Assembly (NCBI GenBank): GCA_964355515.1
Contig: CAYHDV010000001.1
Span: 26,544 to 90,543 of the forward strand
From: an uncultured Candidatus Saccharibacteria bacterium
GTDB lineage: Bacteria; Patescibacteriota; Minisyncoccia; Phycocordibacterales; CSBR16-119
Reading direction: 5' to 3'
DNA length: 64,000 nucleotides
How positions within the stretch are numbered: position 1 is the stretch's first letter; every line of letters begins with the position of its first letter. A program made the translations under genes and the position numbers. The notes under the pieces are model-generated. The model was not told the origin of the DNA and did no database searches. It saw only the letters and a program-made list of their open reading frames with translations. Below, piece after piece: positions 7,805 to 49,469 of the stretch.

Positions 7805-10207
7805 TCAATGAGATTCTGTCTTCACGACAGTGTCCCCATTTCTCCAAATCACAATCTGATTGCCAAAGCTTACAGTGTGCGTCTGGAGGTCACGAAGCAA
7901 CACTCCTTGCCCAATCCTTGAACCAATGGTGCTGTAGACATCACCCACGATAAGTGGGTTTTGCCTGACAATCTCCTCGATTCCGTTTGGTGGAGTTGGT
8001 GAGTTAAGGGTTGTGAAGTAAAAAACTCCATAACTAGACTCATAAACTCCTGCCACGTAGAAATCAAGTTCAAAGAAAATGTTTTGTCCATCAGGCAAAT
8101 CGGCCAAATGGAAATTCATCGGCTGGTTTGCATTCAAGAGCAATATTGGATCAAGCGATTCTCCTGTTTGTCCAAGTGGATACCATCTCATCACGCAAGT
8201 GACTTGTGCCAATCCATGTGGATCGGCCCAGACTTGAATAATCCCCGCGGTTGAATCCACTACCAGCTCCTGCCATCCCAGATACTCTACTGGCCCCAAA
8301 ACTGGAGGCTCAACATATTCCGGAAGTGCCTGACTAAATGTCGGACTTTCCACCCAGCCACCTTCGGCATTTATGTAGATGATCCGATAATAAACCGAAT
8401 CTTCTTCTGCCTGAACGTAGGGCCAGATGTCAGCATGTGCCGTGTATGAACCAATACTTGGTGTTGCCACCGTATCTTGATTCGAAAGTGGACTTGCAAG
8501 AGTCGCAAGATTCTCACTTAGTCTCAAGTAAGCACTTGCACCATTGAGACTCATTGGATTAGCCAAAAAATCAATTTCAGCAATCCAGGTGATCTCAGAC
8601 CATGTTATTGGCATAAGATTTACCACAGGCTGACCAGGTGTCGGCATGGTCGTAAAAGTCCATACCATAGTCCTATCAGTATGAGGAGAAAGTGAATCTT
8701 TCCCCACCACTGTCACACGGTATTCTGTACCGTTCGCAAGACTTGAGTATGCCACCGATTGATTAAGCGTTCCACTTGCGTCATAGAAGTTTTGACTTGA
8801 GATCAGTCCGGGGTTTAACCCGCTTAATTGCTCAAGCTCTACCTCTGCGTTCACTCCTCCAACATTTATCGAGCGGTCAACCAACAGATTGAAACCATAA
8901 CTCACCGCAGTTACCACAGGACCGGTAGATGAAATATCCACAAGTCCGGGTTCATACATGGTGATGTAGTAGGTCCAAGTCTCGGTGGATCCATCTATCG
9001 CTCGCGTGAGTGTGATGGTGACCATCTCGGTCGATCCCGGTGTCAAATTTGTCACCGTGACATCGACAGTATCAAGGCCCATAGTCGCAATTCCTCCCGG
9101 AAAGTTCAAATTTTCCTGAGGAAAGTTCACCACTACATTGCTTGGTCCTCCATCCGAATATGTCGGAATGTGGAGCTCCACTTCGTGAAGACCTGTGCTG
9201 TCATGAGTCACCTGTCCGATAGACAAGTCATCCAAATCAGCCGTGGTCACACTCAGTGTTGCACTTGCCGTACCTCCAGCATTTGTTGCTATGATTTGCC
9301 ATGTGTGCACTGTCCCGAATCCTAGCCCAGGAAGAGTGTACGAGCCAATAGCTGTGTCAACAGTCGTGTTGGTATACACAGAAACTCCATCAGCAAGCAA
9401 ATTGTAGCTTGTAGTGTTTGTCCCGTTCCCAATAACTGTGAACTCTACTTCCTGTGTACTACTTGTCGCTGTTAGCGAATCAAGATAGACAAGTGGCACA
9501 GTCACTGCTCCTGTTGTAAAGGTTAAAACTGGACTCGTAAAGAGTACAATCCCACCTCCAGCATTTGCTCTGACACGTCCTGTATAGGTCGTATTCGGTT
9601 GGCAGTTTGTGATGACAATACTTTTGTCATGTTGAACCCCAACCTCATACAACTGAGTGGCGACGATTCCTCCTGGTCCAGATTGCTGAACAAAGGAAAA
9701 CATTGCACCGCTCTGCCCATCCAGAGAGTCGATGTGGATGGTCGCACCACCAGAGGTGGTGTCCGTCACACTGTGACCCCATGAAGCTGGTATGCCCAAA
9801 TAAAAGGTCGTTGAATCCGTGTGAGTAAGTGATGTGTGCATATCAATTACGTTCCATCCCCCACCCGTTGTATCAACAATCTCTGTAACCACGACCATCT
9901 CAAGGACAGTATTTTCCGTGTTTACATCAAATACCATTGTTTGTGGGATTTGAAGCCCGTAACCAAGCATGAGGCTATCAACTGACACAATTGTATCACC
10001 ATCAAGTTTGATGCCCACCCCAAAAGAGTTTGATACCAATCCATTTTGAAGGAGATTGATAGCAGTGATTTCCGTGTTGATTTTGATCACCCACGGAGTA
10101 GTCACTTGAGTTCCAGTGATTTCTGCAAAAGCGACCGGGGTCACCTGAGCAGACAGATTAAACGCCATCCCTAGGACGGCTAGCGCAATAATGATTGTTT
10201 TTTTCAT
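7805..10207 (-). CDS. Large secreted Thr/Ser/Gly/Val-rich protein with repetitive beta-rich (Ig/FN3-like) segments; likely cell-surface protein
   Basis: 800 aa with N-terminal signal peptide MKKTIIIALAVLGMAFNLSAQ. Markedly higher GC than its surroundings, and low-complexity T/S-rich repeats. Confidence 0.6.
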   Translation of the reverse strand: MKKTIIIALAVLGMAFNLSAQVTPVAFAEITGTQVTTPWVIKINTEITAINLLQNGLVSNSFGVGIKLDGDTIVSVDSLMLGYGLQIPQTMVFDVNTENTVLEMVVVTEIVDTTGGGWNVIDMHTSLTHTDSTTFYLGIPASWGHSVTDTTSGGATIHIDSLDGQSGAMFSFVQQSGPGGIVATQLYEVGVQHDKSIVITNCQPNTTYTGRVRANAGGGIVLFTSPVLTFTTGAVTVPLVYLDSLTATSSTQEVEFTVIGNGTNTTSYNLLADGVSVYTNTTVDTAIGSYTLPGLGFGTVHTWQIIATNAGGTASATLSVTTADLDDLSIGQVTHDSTGLHEVELHIPTYSDGGPSNVVVNFPQENLNFPGGIATMGLDTVDVTVTNLTPGSTEMVTITLTRAIDGSTETWTYYITMYEPGLVDISSTGPVVTAVSYGFNLLVDRSINVGGVNAEVELEQLSGLNPGLISSQNFYDASGTLNQSVAYSSLANGTEYRVTVVGKDSLSPHTDRTMVWTFTTMPTPGQPVVNLMPITWSEITWIAEIDFLANPMSLNGASAYLRLSENLATLASPLSNQDTVATPSIGSYTAHADIWPYVQAEEDSVYYRIIYINAEGGWVESPTFSQALPEYVEPPVLGPVEYLGWQELVVDSTAGIIQVWADPHGLAQVTCVMRWYPLGQTGESLDPILLLNANQPMNFHLADLPDGQNIFFELDFYVAGVYESSYGVFYFTTLNSPTPPNGIEEIVRQNPLIVGDVYSTIGSRIGQGVLLRDLQTHTVSFGNQIVIWRNGDTVVKTESH

Positions 10208-11005: not shown

Positions 11006-11049
11006 AAACAAAAAACTCCCACAATAATCGTGAGAGAAAAATATCTTGT

Positions 11050-11155
11050 ATCGAAAAGCAAGAAACCAGTTGCTAGAATTCCAGTCATTGGACCAATTCT
11101 AGAGATTCACCTTGCGGTCATCCCAGTCCTCCCAAAGTTCGGGAACCTTGGACGC
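11050..11155 (-). repeat. DGR-like template repeat (TR) candidate: 106-nt intergenic copy
   Basis: 87% identical to 11525-11630. All 14 mismatches are T on the plus strand of this copy, meaning A on the minus (sense) strand. The other 92 positions are identical. Confidence 0.75.
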
Positions 11156-11524
11156 GGGAACTTTTGTATATCTATCCATCTGTACCACCGGTGCCAGATT
11201 CCTCCAACACCTGAATATTATTTGGGATCAAGAATCCACCAGATAGATATACCGACATATATTTTTTTGAAAGAATGCAATACAACCACGCTGTGATAAG
11301 CCCTGCCGACGCCAAGGCTTTGGCACGCAAACAGTGACCGACCATATTCTGGGTTGCAAGATTCTGATCGCAGGATGTAAAGCCTTGACCGTACATGCAT
11401 TACCACAATCATCCTTCAGTATATACAAAAAGACCCCTTGATTCAAATGCACAAAGTGCAAAGAACCAAAGGGTCGAAGTTAAAAAGCAACCAAGCAAAG
11501 ATTCAAAAGATCAAAGTTCAGTCG

Positions 11525-11630
11525 CGAAAAGCAAGAAACCAGCCGCTAGAATCCCAGCCACGGGACCAATCCTAGAGATCCACCCTGCGGCCAACCCAGT
11601 CCCCCCAAAGCCCGGGAACCTTGGACGCGG
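11525..11630 (-). repeat. DGR-like variable repeat (VR) candidate spanning the stop codon (11572-11574) of lipoprotein gene 11572..12027
   Basis: Direct repeat of 11050-11155. It carries N substitutions only where the TR has A in the sense strand. The TR frame is rich in AAT/AAC/GAC codons. Confidence 0.75.
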
Positions 11631-12027
11631 TGGTTTTAGAACCAAGTGCGATGATACTCATTTCGCGTTGCAATCTGGGATATTCGTTTCCCAGGGTGAG
11701 AAGTTCGCGAGCGGTTGCTGGCCGAAGTCCACGGACAACCATCTGTGCCACAATATCTTCAGAAGACATTTTTCGGTTAAAGTTGAGTAGGATGGCTTCA
11801 CGGGTCATGATTGTGTCTTTCTTGTCATCTCCACCTTTTTGGATAAAGGCATTGTTGGAAATACCAGAATTGACCAAGTCATAGTTTCCCATGGTCACAA
11901 GGTCATCAATTGACTTGGAATAGTCAATTATGACATTCATCCGTAATTCATCGATTTGGTTTCCTCCACCACAAGATGAGAGGATTGCCATTGCTGGCAA
12001 GAGGGCAAAAAGTGTTAGCTTTTTCAT
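11572..12027 (-). CDS. Small lipoprotein; putative DGR target protein (C-terminal 18 aa encoded by the VR)
   Basis: 151 aa with signal peptide and lipobox (AILSSC). C-terminus ...ASKVPGLWGDWVGRRVDL lies within the repeat. The TAG stop sits in the middle of the repeat. Confidence 0.7.
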   Translation of the reverse strand: MKKLTLFALLPAMAILSSCGGGNQIDELRMNVIIDYSKSIDDLVTMGNYDLVNSGISNNAFIQKGGDDKKDTIMTREAILLNFNRKMSSEDIVAQMVVRGLRPATARELLTLGNEYPRLQREMSIIALGSKTTASKVPGLWGDWVGRRVDL

Positions 12028-12046
12028 AATATTCGGTTTTGAAGTT

Positions 12047-12064
12047 TAAGTATATGTTAACATA
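12047..12064. promoter_or_regulatory. Perfect 18-bp palindrome GTATATGTTAACATATAC, 20 nt upstream of the lipoprotein start; operator candidate
   Basis: Exact inverted repeat overlapping the expected RBS/-10 region of gene 11572..12027. Confidence 0.4.
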
Positions 12065-12192
12065 TACGGGTATCTTTGTCAAGGATTATTGTGATGGCAT
12101 GTATTATATGTAGAAATGACAAGTTTTAGAACTTGCAAACCTTTCGACACTTGAGCTTTAACTTTTAAAATATTCACGGTTTTTTTGATTAG

Positions 12193-12245
12193 TGCGTAGC
12201 GTCTTTGCGAGGAGCTTGGCGACAAAGCAATCCAGGGTTCAATCA
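12193..12245. repeat. Short dispersed repeat, about 50 bp, copy A
   Basis: gcgtagcgtctttgcgaggagcttggcgacaaagcaatccagg matches the reverse complement of 20683-20735. Degenerate relatives at about 11297-11335, 12355-12400 and 12420-12478. Confidence 0.7.
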
Positions 12246-12519
12246 CCTTATTGTGAATGGGGTGCGTTTCAGTGTCCATAGATCCTGAACTAAATTCAGG
12301 ATGACAGGTATATTGTATAGTGTTGCCCATTTAGATCCTGAAATGTACCCTCACTTCGCTGTGGAGTACTAAGTCCTGGATTGCTTCGTGCCTCGCAATG
12401 ACGATACGTTTTATGAGTACTCTCTGGATTGATTCATGCCTCACTTCTTCGCCAAGGCTACGAAAGTGCACGGCGCAATGACAAAATTGTTTGCATGTGA
12501 CAAGCATTACTTTTAGATT

Positions 12520-13290
12520 TTAATCTTTCAGAAAAATTTTCTTTACTTGCTCAGTAGAAATCACTCTTGCATCCTCTACTTTATATTCTCCGATAGAAAT
12601 TCTCCGGAGAGCAGAAAGTGTAGCCGGTACGCCAAGTCTACTGCCTAGCTCGCGAGCAAGTGATCGAATATACGTCCCAGAACCAACATCAAAAGTGACC
12701 CTCAGAGCGACCTCACCCCAGCCCTGCCTGCCGGCAGGCAGGCCTCTCCTTATCAATGAGAGGGGGCTAGCCGATGACCCTTCTCGCTTCGAGTCGTTTC
12801 TTTTAATTTCTTTTAACTTTACCGAATGTACAAGCATTGTCTTTATCGGTACTTCGACCTCTTGGTCTTTGCGGGCATATTTGTACAAAGCCTTTCCATC
12901 TTTTTTGATAGCTGAATACACAGGCACAGCTATTTTTTGCTCACCTAGTAGAGTTTCTAATTTTTCCTTTATCTCTTTGTCTTCTAGAGCCGAAGCGTCC
13001 GCTTCCGCAATCACTTCCCCTTCCAAATCATCTGTTGTGGTTTGTTTACCCAACAGAATTTCTGCTTCATAGACTTTTGATTTGCCAATTAGCCCTGTGA
13101 GCTCCTTTGTCATCTTCCCCACACCCACGAGGATTAGTCCTGTAGCCCTCGGGTCGAGCGTCCCTGCGTGACCTATTTTGATTTTCGCATGTCCGGCTTC
13201 TTTGTACTCTCGTTTCAAAAAACGAATCACATCATACGATGTCACGCCAAATGGCTTGTCTATCAAAAGTAATTCCCCTTCTGGATTCAT
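12520..13290 (-). CDS. truB: tRNA pseudouridine(55) synthase TruB, carrying an in-frame roughly 30-aa insertion that contains a GC-rich palindrome
   Basis: 256 aa. LIDKPFGVTSYDVI, catalytic HAGTLDP, C-terminal GTYIRSLARELG. The insertion encodes ...SPLSLIRRGLPAGRQGWGEV. Confidence 0.85.
   Translation of the reverse strand: MNPEGELLLIDKPFGVTSYDVIRFLKREYKEAGHAKIKIGHAGTLDPRATGLILVGVGKMTKELTGLIGKSKVYEAEILLGKQTTTDDLEGEVIAEADASALEDKEIKEKLETLLGEQKIAVPVYSAIKKDGKALYKYARKDQEVEVPIKTMLVHSVKLKEIKRNDSKREGSSASPLSLIRRGLPAGRQGWGEVALRVTFDVGSGTYIRSLARELGSRLGVPATLSALRRISIGEYKVEDARVISTEQVKKIFLKD
12722..12752. repeat. GC-rich perfect palindrome CCTGCCTGCCGGCAGGCAGG embedded in-frame in truB
   Basis: Near-identical palindrome CCTGCCTGCCGGACAGGCAGG at 23519-23540 inside grpE. 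Confidence 0.7.
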
Positions 13291-20632: not shown

Positions 20633-20682
20633 CCTTTGTTGGTGCTTTTTTATTTCCAGTGATAAAAATTTCGTGAGAAATC

Positions 20683-20735
20683 CTGGATTGCCACGTCGCC
20701 AAGCTCCTCGCAAAGACGCTACGTGCGGTGATTAA
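20683..20735. repeat. Short dispersed repeat, copy B, immediately 3' of dnaK
   Basis: Reverse complement matches 12193-12245 (about 90% identity). Confidence 0.7.
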
Positions 20736-45627: not shown

Positions 45628-46179
45628 TTATACGGTCATTACTTCTACTTCTTTTTTCTGATAAATTTCTTCTAGTTTTTTGTTTGATTCATCTACTAAT
45701 TTTTGGAGATCATCTTTCAATCTCTTCATGTCATCTTCCCCCATATCTCCATCCTTTTTTTGTTTTTCTATTTCTTCGATAAAGACTTGCCTCTCTTTTC
45801 TTATGCTCACTCTAGCCTCTTCTAGCTTCCCTTTCAGAACTTTTGCAAGTTTGGCACGAGTTTCTTCGGTAAGCATGGGGAATATAACTCGAACCCCAGA
45901 GTCGCCAGATGCAGTAGAGAGTCCTAGTCCGCTATCAATAATAGCTTTTTCTACAGCTTTGATTTGTCCCTTGTCCCAAGGAGCGACAAGGAGTGTTCTA
46001 GAATCTTCGATAGAAATAGATCCTATATTTTTTATTGGTTGAGACGCCCCATACACTTCCGCATGGATAGAATCCAGAATAGCAGGACTTGCCATTCCTG
46101 TGTGTACTTGTGAATATTCTTTTTTAATCCATTCTTCAGTCCCCTGAAATGCTTGTTTCGCTTCATTTAAATTCATCAT
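45628..46179 (-). CDS. frr: Ribosome recycling factor
   Basis: 183 aa. ...RVSIRKERQ..., typical RRF length and charge pattern. Confidence 0.85.
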   Translation of the reverse strand: MMNLNEAKQAFQGTEEWIKKEYSQVHTGMASPAILDSIHAEVYGASQPIKNIGSISIEDSRTLLVAPWDKGQIKAVEKAIIDSGLGLSTASGDSGVRVIFPMLTEETRAKLAKVLKGKLEEARVSIRKERQVFIEEIEKQKKDGDMGEDDMKRLKDDLQKLVDESNKKLEEIYQKKEVEVMTV

Positions 46180-46303
46180 ATGGGTATAAGTATACTTGGG
46201 AGAGTCCCTTTTGGCAAAGTATTCAAATGACTCAGTATAAACTGAGTCATTTGAATTTGTATTTAAAAATCTGCGAATAAGTCGCAGATTCCTTTGAAAT
46301 TTA

Positions 46304-46525
46304 CTAATATACTCTTTTTTTCTTCATCGGCAGATGTATGTTTCTATACACTGAATTTAAATCATAAAAATTAGTTCTTCCTTCTTTTCCTGGGATTGGT
46401 TGTAAATTCTCACTCACAGAACCTAAATCATAGAAGTTAATCCTCGGGCGTGGTGTTCTTGCGTGCTTTGCCATGATATTTGATCTTTTATCTATTTTAA
46501 CATACTCAAAAAACCAACGCCACAT
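46304..46525 (-). CDS. Small basic hypothetical protein with internal NFYDL(G/N)SV repeat
   Basis: 73-aa ORF, likely starting at the internal MAKHARTPRP. Overlaps the 3' end of the holB-like gene by about 20 nt. Confidence 0.3.
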   Translation of the reverse strand: MWRWFFEYVKIDKRSNIMAKHARTPRPRINFYDLGSVSENLQPIPGKEGRTNFYDLNSVYRNIHLPMKKKRVY

Positions 46526-49112: not shown

Positions 49113-49469
49113 TTAAACAAAGGTGATTTTTTTACTATAGGGAACCAAGATTGGATCGTCCTTTCCGAGAGGGAGAAATGGATCACCCTTTGTCCTCTTG
49201 TGGTCGATCTTTCCTTTGGGAATATAGACTCTTTCCGCTGCCGGAAGAAGAAAAAAGATGAAATCTTCGGTCATTACTGGCACGTAGCTACACTTTACAG
49301 GAAGTGTCTCATCTACTATTACTTGAAAATTCATTTCTCGAGGTTTCCCAATGATATGTGGTGCTTCGCCCAATAGTATCCTAGAGTTTTGTTCTGAGAT
49401 TACTAAAAGATCTACAGAAAATTTGCTCACTCCTGGATTGCTCTCTGGTATATAAATCTTTTTGCCCAT
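49113..49469 (-). CDS. Hypothetical protein
   Basis: 118-aa ORF. Confidence 0.35.
   Translation of the reverse strand: MGKKIYIPESNPGVSKFSVDLLVISEQNSRILLGEAPHIIGKPREMNFQVIVDETLPVKCSYVPVMTEDFIFFLLPAAERVYIPKGKIDHKRTKGDPFLPLGKDDPILVPYSKKITFV

Follow-up and report, generated by a model that had tools for sequence, protein, structure and literature searches.

We propose, with a probability of about 0.85, that the window (the whole 64-kb stretch of DNA that was analysed) carries a cassette made of the target gene of a diversity-generating retroelement (DGR) and its template repeat (TR), and that a nonsense mutation in the TR was subsequently copied to the target by mutagenic retrohoming. The proposed course of events would begin with a G-to-A change in the TR by which the TGG of a conserved Trp became TAG. 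Mutagenic retrohoming would then have rewritten the variable repeat (VR) of the target, altering 14 of the 23 template adenines and copying the new A faithfully, and the stop installed in this way would leave a C-type-lectin-fold (CLec) lipoprotein that is 18 residues short and probably non-functional. The TR RNA, which appears to be structured and independently terminated, would be used in trans by an RT and Avd supplied from elsewhere, and a further round of homing would write either TAG again or a sense codon, the likeliest of which would be TGG. The transfer from TR to VR, the loss of function, the trans-acting RT and the future toggling are what we infer from the observations presented below.

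The repeat pair and the target lipoprotein gene

A repeat search of the window reported a single pair of direct repeats, 106 nt long and 87% identical, at 11052-11157 and 11525-11630. On the minus strand the two copies mismatch at 14 positions, and at every one of them the base of the 11052-11157 copy is A (14/14). Adenines account for 23 of the 106 bases of this copy, and the chance that 14 mismatches out of 14 would fall on them is approximately (23/106)^14, or about 5e-10. Because all of the mismatches are found at adenines, we identify 11052-11157 (minus strand) as the TR of a DGR and 11525-11630 (minus strand) as its VR. The TR-to-VR changes consist of 12 A>G, one A>T and one A>C. As in other DGRs, the VR lies at the 3' end of a coding target, where it spans the final 35 codons of a 169-codon frame, and the TR is rich in AAY codons: read in the frame of the target, it contains AAT four times and AAC once, together with GAA, GAG, GAT, GAC and AAG. 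The last 18 nt of the TR are free of adenine. The two repeats differ at their 3' ends, the VR ending in ...TTTTCGCGAC and the TR in ...TTTTCGATAC, a contrast that is kept in the window and in two related cassettes, L013 and L003. No second cassette or paralogue was found in the 64-kb window.

The target gene as now terminated (11572-12027, minus strand) encodes, according to the ORF list and its translation, a 151-aa lipoprotein with a signal peptide and an LSSC lipobox; its N-terminus, MKKLTLFALLPAMAILSSCGGG, is a lipoprotein signal, and exactly the same protein is recorded in other assemblies. Upstream of the gene, a consensus match (TTGACA, a 17-nt spacer and TAACAT, with TG) marks a promoter-like site at 12054-12082 (minus strand). 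The reading frame ends at a TAG (11572-11574, cta on the plus strand). Repeat comparison and translation place this codon inside the VR, between 56 preceding and 47 following VR bases, and half of the A-to-N differences (seven of 14) fall past the stop. The corresponding triplet of the TR (11099-11101, minus strand) is also TAG, and AAY codons persist in frame beyond it, the TR reading ...AAT CTC TAG AAT TGG TCC AAT GAC TGG AAT TCT AGC AAC TGG TTT CTT GCT TTT CG. On each of these points, that is, the position of the TAG 56 nt into the VR, the differences and in-frame AAT/AAC codons past it, and the TAG in the TR, a preliminary description of the sequence was accurate. It had also predicted a C-terminal extension of 19 residues, which has to be corrected to 18: read-through adds the residue of the TNG codon and DWSRGWDSSGWFLAFRD, up to a TGA at 11518-11520, for a total of 169 aa. 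The extension itself is real, as the homologues described below continue through it and the closest ones have Trp at the TAG. We therefore distinguish the present gene from an ancestral full-length frame (11518-12027, minus strand; 169 codons and TGA, ending ...DWSRGWDSSGWFLAFRD), which is identified by the read-through translation, by homologues and by P0242, a protein of a sister strain. Regarding the TAG itself, the Logan ERR3856787 and ENA ERZ4201065 contigs are 100% identical to the window across TR and VR, which makes an assembly error unlikely. TAG also terminates 6 of the 45 long ORFs in the window, including corA at its canonical C-terminus, and in this genome the codon works as a true stop.

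A protein search with the read-through sequence retrieved homologues of 168-172 aa that align over 100% of the query, and in tblastn the homologue alignments cross the TAG and reach 11521. The closest homologues end in ...WFLAFRD, and 7 out of 10 have Trp at the TAG position, within the motif L-W-x-W-S. By profile search the family comprises at least 635 proteins, none of which contains a Pfam domain. All 73 aligned members reach a terminal F-[LA]-A-[FV]-R-[KD] motif (WFLAFRD or RFAAVRK), and a stop in the middle of the VR is found in none of them. Moreover, between the window and L013, a cassette with 79% nucleotide identity to that of the window, the segment encoding WFLAFRD and the stop shows synonymous differences only (TTT/TTC, CTT/CTG and TTT/TTC). 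Since the homologues all continue and only synonymous change separates this segment from L013, the 18 post-TAG codons represent the normal, constrained C-terminus of the protein.

Profile searches gave the target family no Pfam match, no meaningful NCBIfam match and no relative in the PDB, and by sequence the target does not belong to the described CLec families of DGR targets (FGE-sulfatase, DUF1566 etc.). An AlphaFold model of P0002, the closest full-length homologue (170 aa; alignment of 73 sequences; pLDDT 87, pTM 0.84), predicts a CLec fold with the variable residues in its C-terminal part and strands at residues 27-36, 73-82, 125-132, 136-142, 148-154 and 164-169. The TAG corresponds to W153 of P0002, and a protein that stops there lacks not only the end of strand 148-154 and the variable loop but also the invariant final strand (164-169). 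The core sheet of CLec folds includes the C-terminal strand. With its last strand lost, the truncated 151-aa lipoprotein is, judging from the model, probably misfolded or inactive.

The surroundings of the gene contain other features. The 490-nt gap from the target promoter to truB holds nested inverted repeats (12195-12456) with motifs such as CCTGGATTGCTTCGTGCCTCGCAATGACG, which look like miniature repeat elements; the CCTGGATTGCTTCGTGCCTCGCAATGACG-type core or related words are found elsewhere in the window at about 8580, at 20682-20706 and at 49432. Inside truB (12520-13290, minus strand), a GC-rich palindrome, …CCTGCCTGCCGGCAGGCAGG…, and a second hairpin lie in frame at 12700-12760, in a genome of 38% GC; the palindromic segment encodes …SPLSLIRRGLPAGRQGWGEV… and looks like an intragenic repeat-element insertion. 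Two genes away from the cassette, the stretch 7805-10207 (minus strand) encodes an 800-aa Thr/Val-rich protein with a signal peptide and no Pfam match on record, which is possibly another surface protein.

Origin of the stop codon and its presence in both repeats

The origin of the TAG can be traced by comparison with a sister strain. P0242 (169 aa), the second member of the 90% cluster of the window protein, has the C-terminus ...GLWAWSHVWDSSRWFLAFRD. Its contig, L027 (Logan ERR12084957), has the same genomic context, with the same upstream promoter region and the TR terminator followed by the end of rsmE, and differs from the window at 45 positions over 1204 nt; both the window cassette (11006-12090) and that of L027 are located between rsmE and truB. 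The TR of L027 is that of the window but for position 11100, which is G in L027 and A in the window (minus strand), and L027 has TGG in its TR and in its VR. In the TRs of L013 (AAT CTC TGG AAT TGG) and L003/L004 (AAT CTT TGG AAT TGG), the codon matching the window TAG is TGG as well. Taking L013 and L003 as outgroups makes G ancestral at 11100, and the TAG hence results from a strain-specific G>A change in the template. From these comparisons, we consider the TAG to be a recent G-to-A nonsense mutation that arose in the TR of a single strain. No in-frame stop is present in the other five of the six distinct TRs (L027, L013, L003/L004, L010/L017 and L024/L025). Only two VR haplotypes are on record, and the TGG one occurs in the strain with a TGG TR; the TGG of the L027 VR was thus templated by its own TR and is no rescue from TAG.

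The passage of the stop into the target is suggested by the relationship between the repeats of the two strains. In L027, 17 of 17 TR/VR mismatches are at A, as are all those of the window, and in both strains the VR equals its own TR at every non-A site. The two VRs differ from each other at 14 sites, all of them template adenines, and their TRs are one base apart, so that different VRs correspond to practically one TR, as is typical of diversification by a DGR. Near-identical TRs and VRs differing at 14 adenine sites indicate that the two strains diversified independently. Moreover, at lineage-specific positions other than adenines, the VR matches its own TR in each lineage, from which it follows that the VRs have been repeatedly overwritten from the TRs. 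At 11573 the window VR has the derived A; 9 of the 23 template adenines are unaltered in it, and the template adenines located 2 nt and 7 nt from the TAG (11571 and 11580) have become G. A single round of mutagenic homing that followed the TR mutation and left this A among the nine unchanged ones would be the simple reading. An RT-independent gene conversion from TR to VR was considered and rejected, since the altered bases at 11571 and 11580 limit its tract to less than 8 nt.

The changes at template adenines have a characteristic spectrum. In addition to the 12 A>G, one A>C and one A>T of the window, L027 has 12 A>G, four A>C and one A>T, L013 has eight, four and two, L003 has seven, two and five, and L010 has two, three and two, respectively. 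Summed over these five TR/VR pairs, the 66 changes comprise 41 A>G, 14 A>C and 11 A>T. Mismatches at bases other than A are found in L013 (3 out of 17). The proportions of template adenines altered in the current VRs, 14/23 in the window and 17/22 in L027, are post-selection values and only indicative; a per-adenine misincorporation rate of 30.65% is given for the BPP-1 enzyme (PMC12875486). Given the A>G-rich spectrum, TGG is the likeliest sense outcome of a new homing event at the TAG. In principle, therefore, the stop is self-reversible through homing, which would write TNG sense codons, mostly TGG, provided that the RT is still present. We regard this reversibility as a by-product of a recent accident and not as a conserved regulatory design.

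These results bear on the central proposal of the preliminary description, namely that the C-terminus of the protein is switched between truncated and extended forms in the population. Several of its premises stand. The central A of the TAG is indeed a template adenine that homing could in principle convert to give TGG, TCG or TTG, the extended C-terminus exists in a relative, the 169-aa full-length variant of L027, and the 47 nt past the stop vary as coding sequence does, the window and L027 differing there only at template adenines, in frame. The standing switch is not borne out: a single strain has the TAG, TGG stands in the TRs of L027, L013 and L003, and all assemblies of the window strain have TAG. 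Nor would there be two functional forms, the short one lacking the invariant last beta-strand of the predicted CLec fold; the two states would be an intact protein and a probably broken one.

The TR RNA and the missing RT and Avd

Upstream of the TR, the alignment of six loci (A6), its consensus fold and its pair counts delineate a putative conserved RNA scaffold (11166-11410, minus strand). RNAalifold predicted 92 pairs in A6, 44 of them with compensatory changes. Over the whole structure, including helices inside and downstream of the TR, 91% of the cells are paired, compared with 40-47% when the partners are slid by 1-3 columns, and pairs changed on both sides number 44 in the predicted structure and 8-14 with slid partners; the observed values were reached in 0 out of 500 shuffles. 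For a conserved, structured TR RNA with covariation, this support, drawn from six sequences of which three are close relatives, is good but not definitive. The consensus fold of the minus strand contains a helix at 11375-11396, nested helices at 11281-11358, a 12-bp helix abutting the TR (11241-11252 with 11166-11177) and small hairpins. A long-range helix (11037-11266) encloses the TR by pairing 11259-11266 with 11037-11044, and four of its eight pairs are changed on both sides. Within the scaffold, a GC-rich hairpin insertion (11292-11346, minus strand) is present in the window, L027 and L013 and absent from L003, L010 and L025; of the 45 differences separating the window from L027, 15 fall in it, far more than in its flanks, and every version of it folds into a stable hairpin. 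Sixteen nucleotides past the TR, a hairpin followed by a T-run (11016-11036, minus strand) resembles an intrinsic terminator, at which the TR RNA would end. According to alignments A3 and A6, RT-linked loci also keep it behind the TR, and the spacer and this post-TR hairpin can be aligned between RT-less loci and RT-linked ones (L010 and L025). Across the cassette, Rfam searches at the gathering threshold and at E<=1 returned noise only, and the single-sequence fold of the TR RNA is not distinctive (z = -1.5), the comparative analysis alone being informative. We consider the segment 11016-11410 a candidate DGR template RNA from which a new covariance model could be built.

Another hairpin with a T-run (11427-11475, minus strand), recognised from the sequence and from alignments A2 and A3, lies downstream of the full-length stop and about 45 nt downstream of the VR, and is conserved in L013, L003 and L005. 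It is probably the terminator of the target gene, and it may also serve as the hairpin by which the DGR recognises its target. Short CTTTG/GACCCTTT motifs are found just downstream of the VR in L013 (about 760-800), at the end of L014 and in the window (about 11470-11520). GACCCTTT is present as three tandem copies in L013 and L014, the contig of the latter stopping inside the array, and as a single copy in the window. These motifs may bind a protein or take part in the recognition of the target.

An RT, usually accompanied by Avd, is found next to the TR in DGRs, and the window cassette has none. A YxDD scan of all six frames of the window returned only DnaB and DnaK, and tblastn with 40 CPR DGR RTs and one Avd gave no match in the 64-kb window or in the 9.1 kb past its end (about 73 kb), nor in the L003/L004/L013 loci. 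The distance to any RT thus exceeds 11 kb on one side and 62 kb on the other, and this absence from the window and the 9.1 kb beyond it counts against our main reading. So do the 3/17 non-A mismatches of L013, as some cassettes of this type may be drifting, and the VR haplotypes on record, two in all and with TAG in every assembly of the window strain, which give no direct sign of ongoing variation at this site. One RT match, P0120, was rejected as the enzyme of this strain; it comes from a different organism (48% GC compared with 38%) and belongs to a complete DGR of its own.

The RT-less layout, which comprises the target, a hairpin, a spacer of about 350 nt, the TR and a terminator, recurs at different chromosomal sites. 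The L013 cassette has another upstream gene than that of the window, the L003/L004 cassette (L003 10001-11010) is located inside a ribosomal-protein operon, between L5 and S8, and P0003 is encoded between holB and frr, two genes that are adjacent in the window (46179-46506). From these placements, the whole cassette appears to relocate as a unit. Complete members of the family exist as well. L010/L017 (Campbellbacteria RIFOXYC2_FULL_35_25) is a complete DGR with target, VR, TR, hairpin, an antisense Avd-like ORF and an RT containing IRYADDF, and L024-26 have the same arrangement, with an RT and a bAvd Pfam match (L026). These complete members have a TR RNA that is terminated separately, as a unit of its own, and avd on the opposite strand. 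Since the TR RNA unit is constrained in RT-less cassettes and is transcriptionally separate even in complete elements, an RT and Avd acting in trans are the natural reading. We infer that an enzyme encoded elsewhere acts on the TR RNA of the window, although this homing enzyme may since have been lost from the strain.

Some observations on the related loci deserve mention. The Avd-like ORF of L010 (9938-10177, minus strand), which lies between TR and RT and measures 79 aa in the ORF list, overlaps on the opposite strand the region right after the TR hairpin; it may be truncated or may use a non-canonical start codon. Other homologous target genes (L005/L008/L016, L009, L015 and L018-L023) have an intact VR-like C-terminus and no TR within the available 0.4-6 kb or so downstream. 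They may be remote targets of a TR located elsewhere or former targets. L020 has the same C-terminus as the complete DGR L017 and comes from the same metagenome, on a separate contig that carries neither TR nor RT. Scans of sequence collections with the protein alignment yielded few loci, mostly distant.

Alternative explanations and related systems

The TAG might be explained in other ways. Mixing of TR and VR reads during sequencing or assembly would be conceivable insofar as 106-nt repeats at 87% identity can confuse short-read assemblers and the homologous contig L014 breaks just past its VR. However, the 14 TR/VR differences stand on both sides of the TAG, two of them at only 2 nt and 7 nt from it, the same sequence is present in the Logan, ENA and NCBI assemblies, and the TR itself has the A, at the one position where the TR of L027 differs. 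We find an artefact scarcely credible, and an assembly chimera was rejected in view of the identical contigs of other assemblies. It is also very improbable that the TAG is recoded or suppressed, yielding a full-length protein. Alternative genetic codes exist in some uncultivated lineages and phages, and the frame past the TAG is intact, but TAG ends 6 out of 45 long and well-formed ORFs under the standard code, corA among them, the sole tRNA in the window is a tRNA-Glu, and the ancestral TGG one base away is the signature of a nonsense mutation and not of a recoded position. Recoding of TAG was rejected.

Two further readings accept the DGR and differ on its present state. The cassette could be a dead relic that has lost its RT, the TAG stemming from the last homing event or from decay and the gene being a permanent pseudogene. 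[quoted passage not shown] We nevertheless consider a relic unlikely: the window and L027 have zero non-A mismatches between TR and VR, near-identical TRs have given rise to independent diversification in two strains that have no adjacent RT, at least three more lineages have conserved RT-less cassettes whose TR-RNA scaffold is structurally constrained, and the separate TR RNA and opposite-strand avd of the complete members build trans action into the architecture. The stop could, on the other hand, be a programmed toggle, in which a TAG at a template adenine has been maintained by selection to switch the lipoprotein between truncated and extended forms. Surface lipoproteins are a typical class of ON/OFF-switched proteins. 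The toggle is mechanistically allowed, the central base of the stop being a template adenine, 14/23 template adenines in the window and 17/22 in L027 are altered in the current VRs, and with A>G making up 41 of 66 changes a TGG rescue would be the likeliest. What makes this toggle improbable is that the TAG occurs in one strain only, the sister strain and three other lineages having TGG in the TR, that no other of the six distinct TRs contains an in-frame stop, and that no TNG heterogeneity is seen among the assemblies of this strain. Moreover, DGR templates, which are AAY-rich, have been described as avoiding stop codons (PMC12875486; bioRxiv 10.1101/2024.11.15.621889). One may speculate, with little confidence, that the RT-less cassette is an autonomous satellite module served by an RT in trans, and that an adenine-borne stop acts as a selectable gate on the module. 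If this were true, each homing event would redraw the binding site and at the same time choose at random between a null and an expressed allele, bringing phase variation and diversification together. A template mutation passed on to the target by retrohoming is the reading that we retain.

Among known systems, the nearest type is that of the Patescibacteria (CPR) DGRs, clade 2 of Roux et al. or B3 of Wu et al., with the order target-TR-(avd)-RT; the B3 architecture TR-(avd)-RT is found in 90% of CPR DGRs (PMC5758913). The target family, the TR/VR anatomy, the spacer RNA and the post-TR hairpin of the window are homologous to those of L010/L017, whose RT has YADD, and of L024-26, and the targets of CPR DGRs lack recognisable domains (PMC8144416), as does that of the window. 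In contrast to these DGRs, the window cassette ends at the terminator of the TR RNA with no avd or RT within about 73 kb, its TR carries an in-frame stop, and RT-less cassettes of this kind occupy varied chromosomal sites in related genomes. The prototype, the DGR of Bordetella phage BPP-1 (mtd-avd-TR-brt), shares with the window the adenine-specific mutagenesis from TR to VR, the AAY codons in the TR, the VR at the 3' end of a CLec-fold protein (ligand-binding in BPP-1, a predicted fold here), the A-free 3' end and a boundary difference, VR CGCGAC and TR CGATAC, resembling IMH/IMH*. Unlike it, the window element is chromosomal and not phage-borne, its target is a 169-aa lipoprotein and not a tail-fibre tip, its conserved RNA structure lies mainly upstream of the TR, and RT and Avd are unlinked. 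In BPP-1 the stop codon closely follows the VR, within the spacer that precedes the hairpin (PMC3240598), whereas that of the window is in the middle of the VR. According to earlier work cited in a survey, the avd, TR and brt of BPP-1 can be supplied in trans experimentally (PMC5758913).

Natural precedents for trans action have also been proposed. Diversification in trans has been suggested for the incomplete DGR loci of Thiohalocapsa PB-PSB1 (Dore et al. 2024, PMC10907252), and these loci, like the remote Treponema targets (Wu et al.), show A-only diversification despite absent components, as the window does; they mostly borrow an RT-adjacent TR, whereas the window keeps its own TR RNA and only the proteins are absent. 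The writing of a template-borne stop has a precedent in engineered kanR-repair reporters, in which adenines of stops carried by the TR are mutagenised and written into the target (PMC3240598, PMC12875486). The stops of those reporters are artificial and at the end of the coding part, whereas that of the window is natural and interrupts the coding part of the TR midway. Finally, the cassette would resemble phase-variable surface-protein genes in being stochastic, heritable and reversible, with ON/OFF states set by a premature stop. It would differ from them in relying on rewriting by an RT instead of repeat slippage or inversion, in that no switching has been observed, and in that the state is not conserved.

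Altogether, the cassette appears to be a natural case, caught near the event, of DGR information flow from template to target in uncultivated, ultra-small Patescibacteria: a single base change in the TR, dated by the sister strain, reappears in the VR amid freshly mutagenised adenines. It would illustrate both a cost of DGRs, whereby a mutation of the template propagates into the gene, and an escape from it, whereby further editing can remove a stop that includes an adenine. Beyond this case, cassettes of target and TR RNA are conserved, and evidently active, far from an RT. DGR surveys anchored on the RT would miss them, and the targets of CPR DGRs may therefore be under-counted. The TR-RNA scaffold, which has no Rfam match, offers a handle both for finding such cassettes and for studying how the RT and Avd of CPR bacteria recognise their template.
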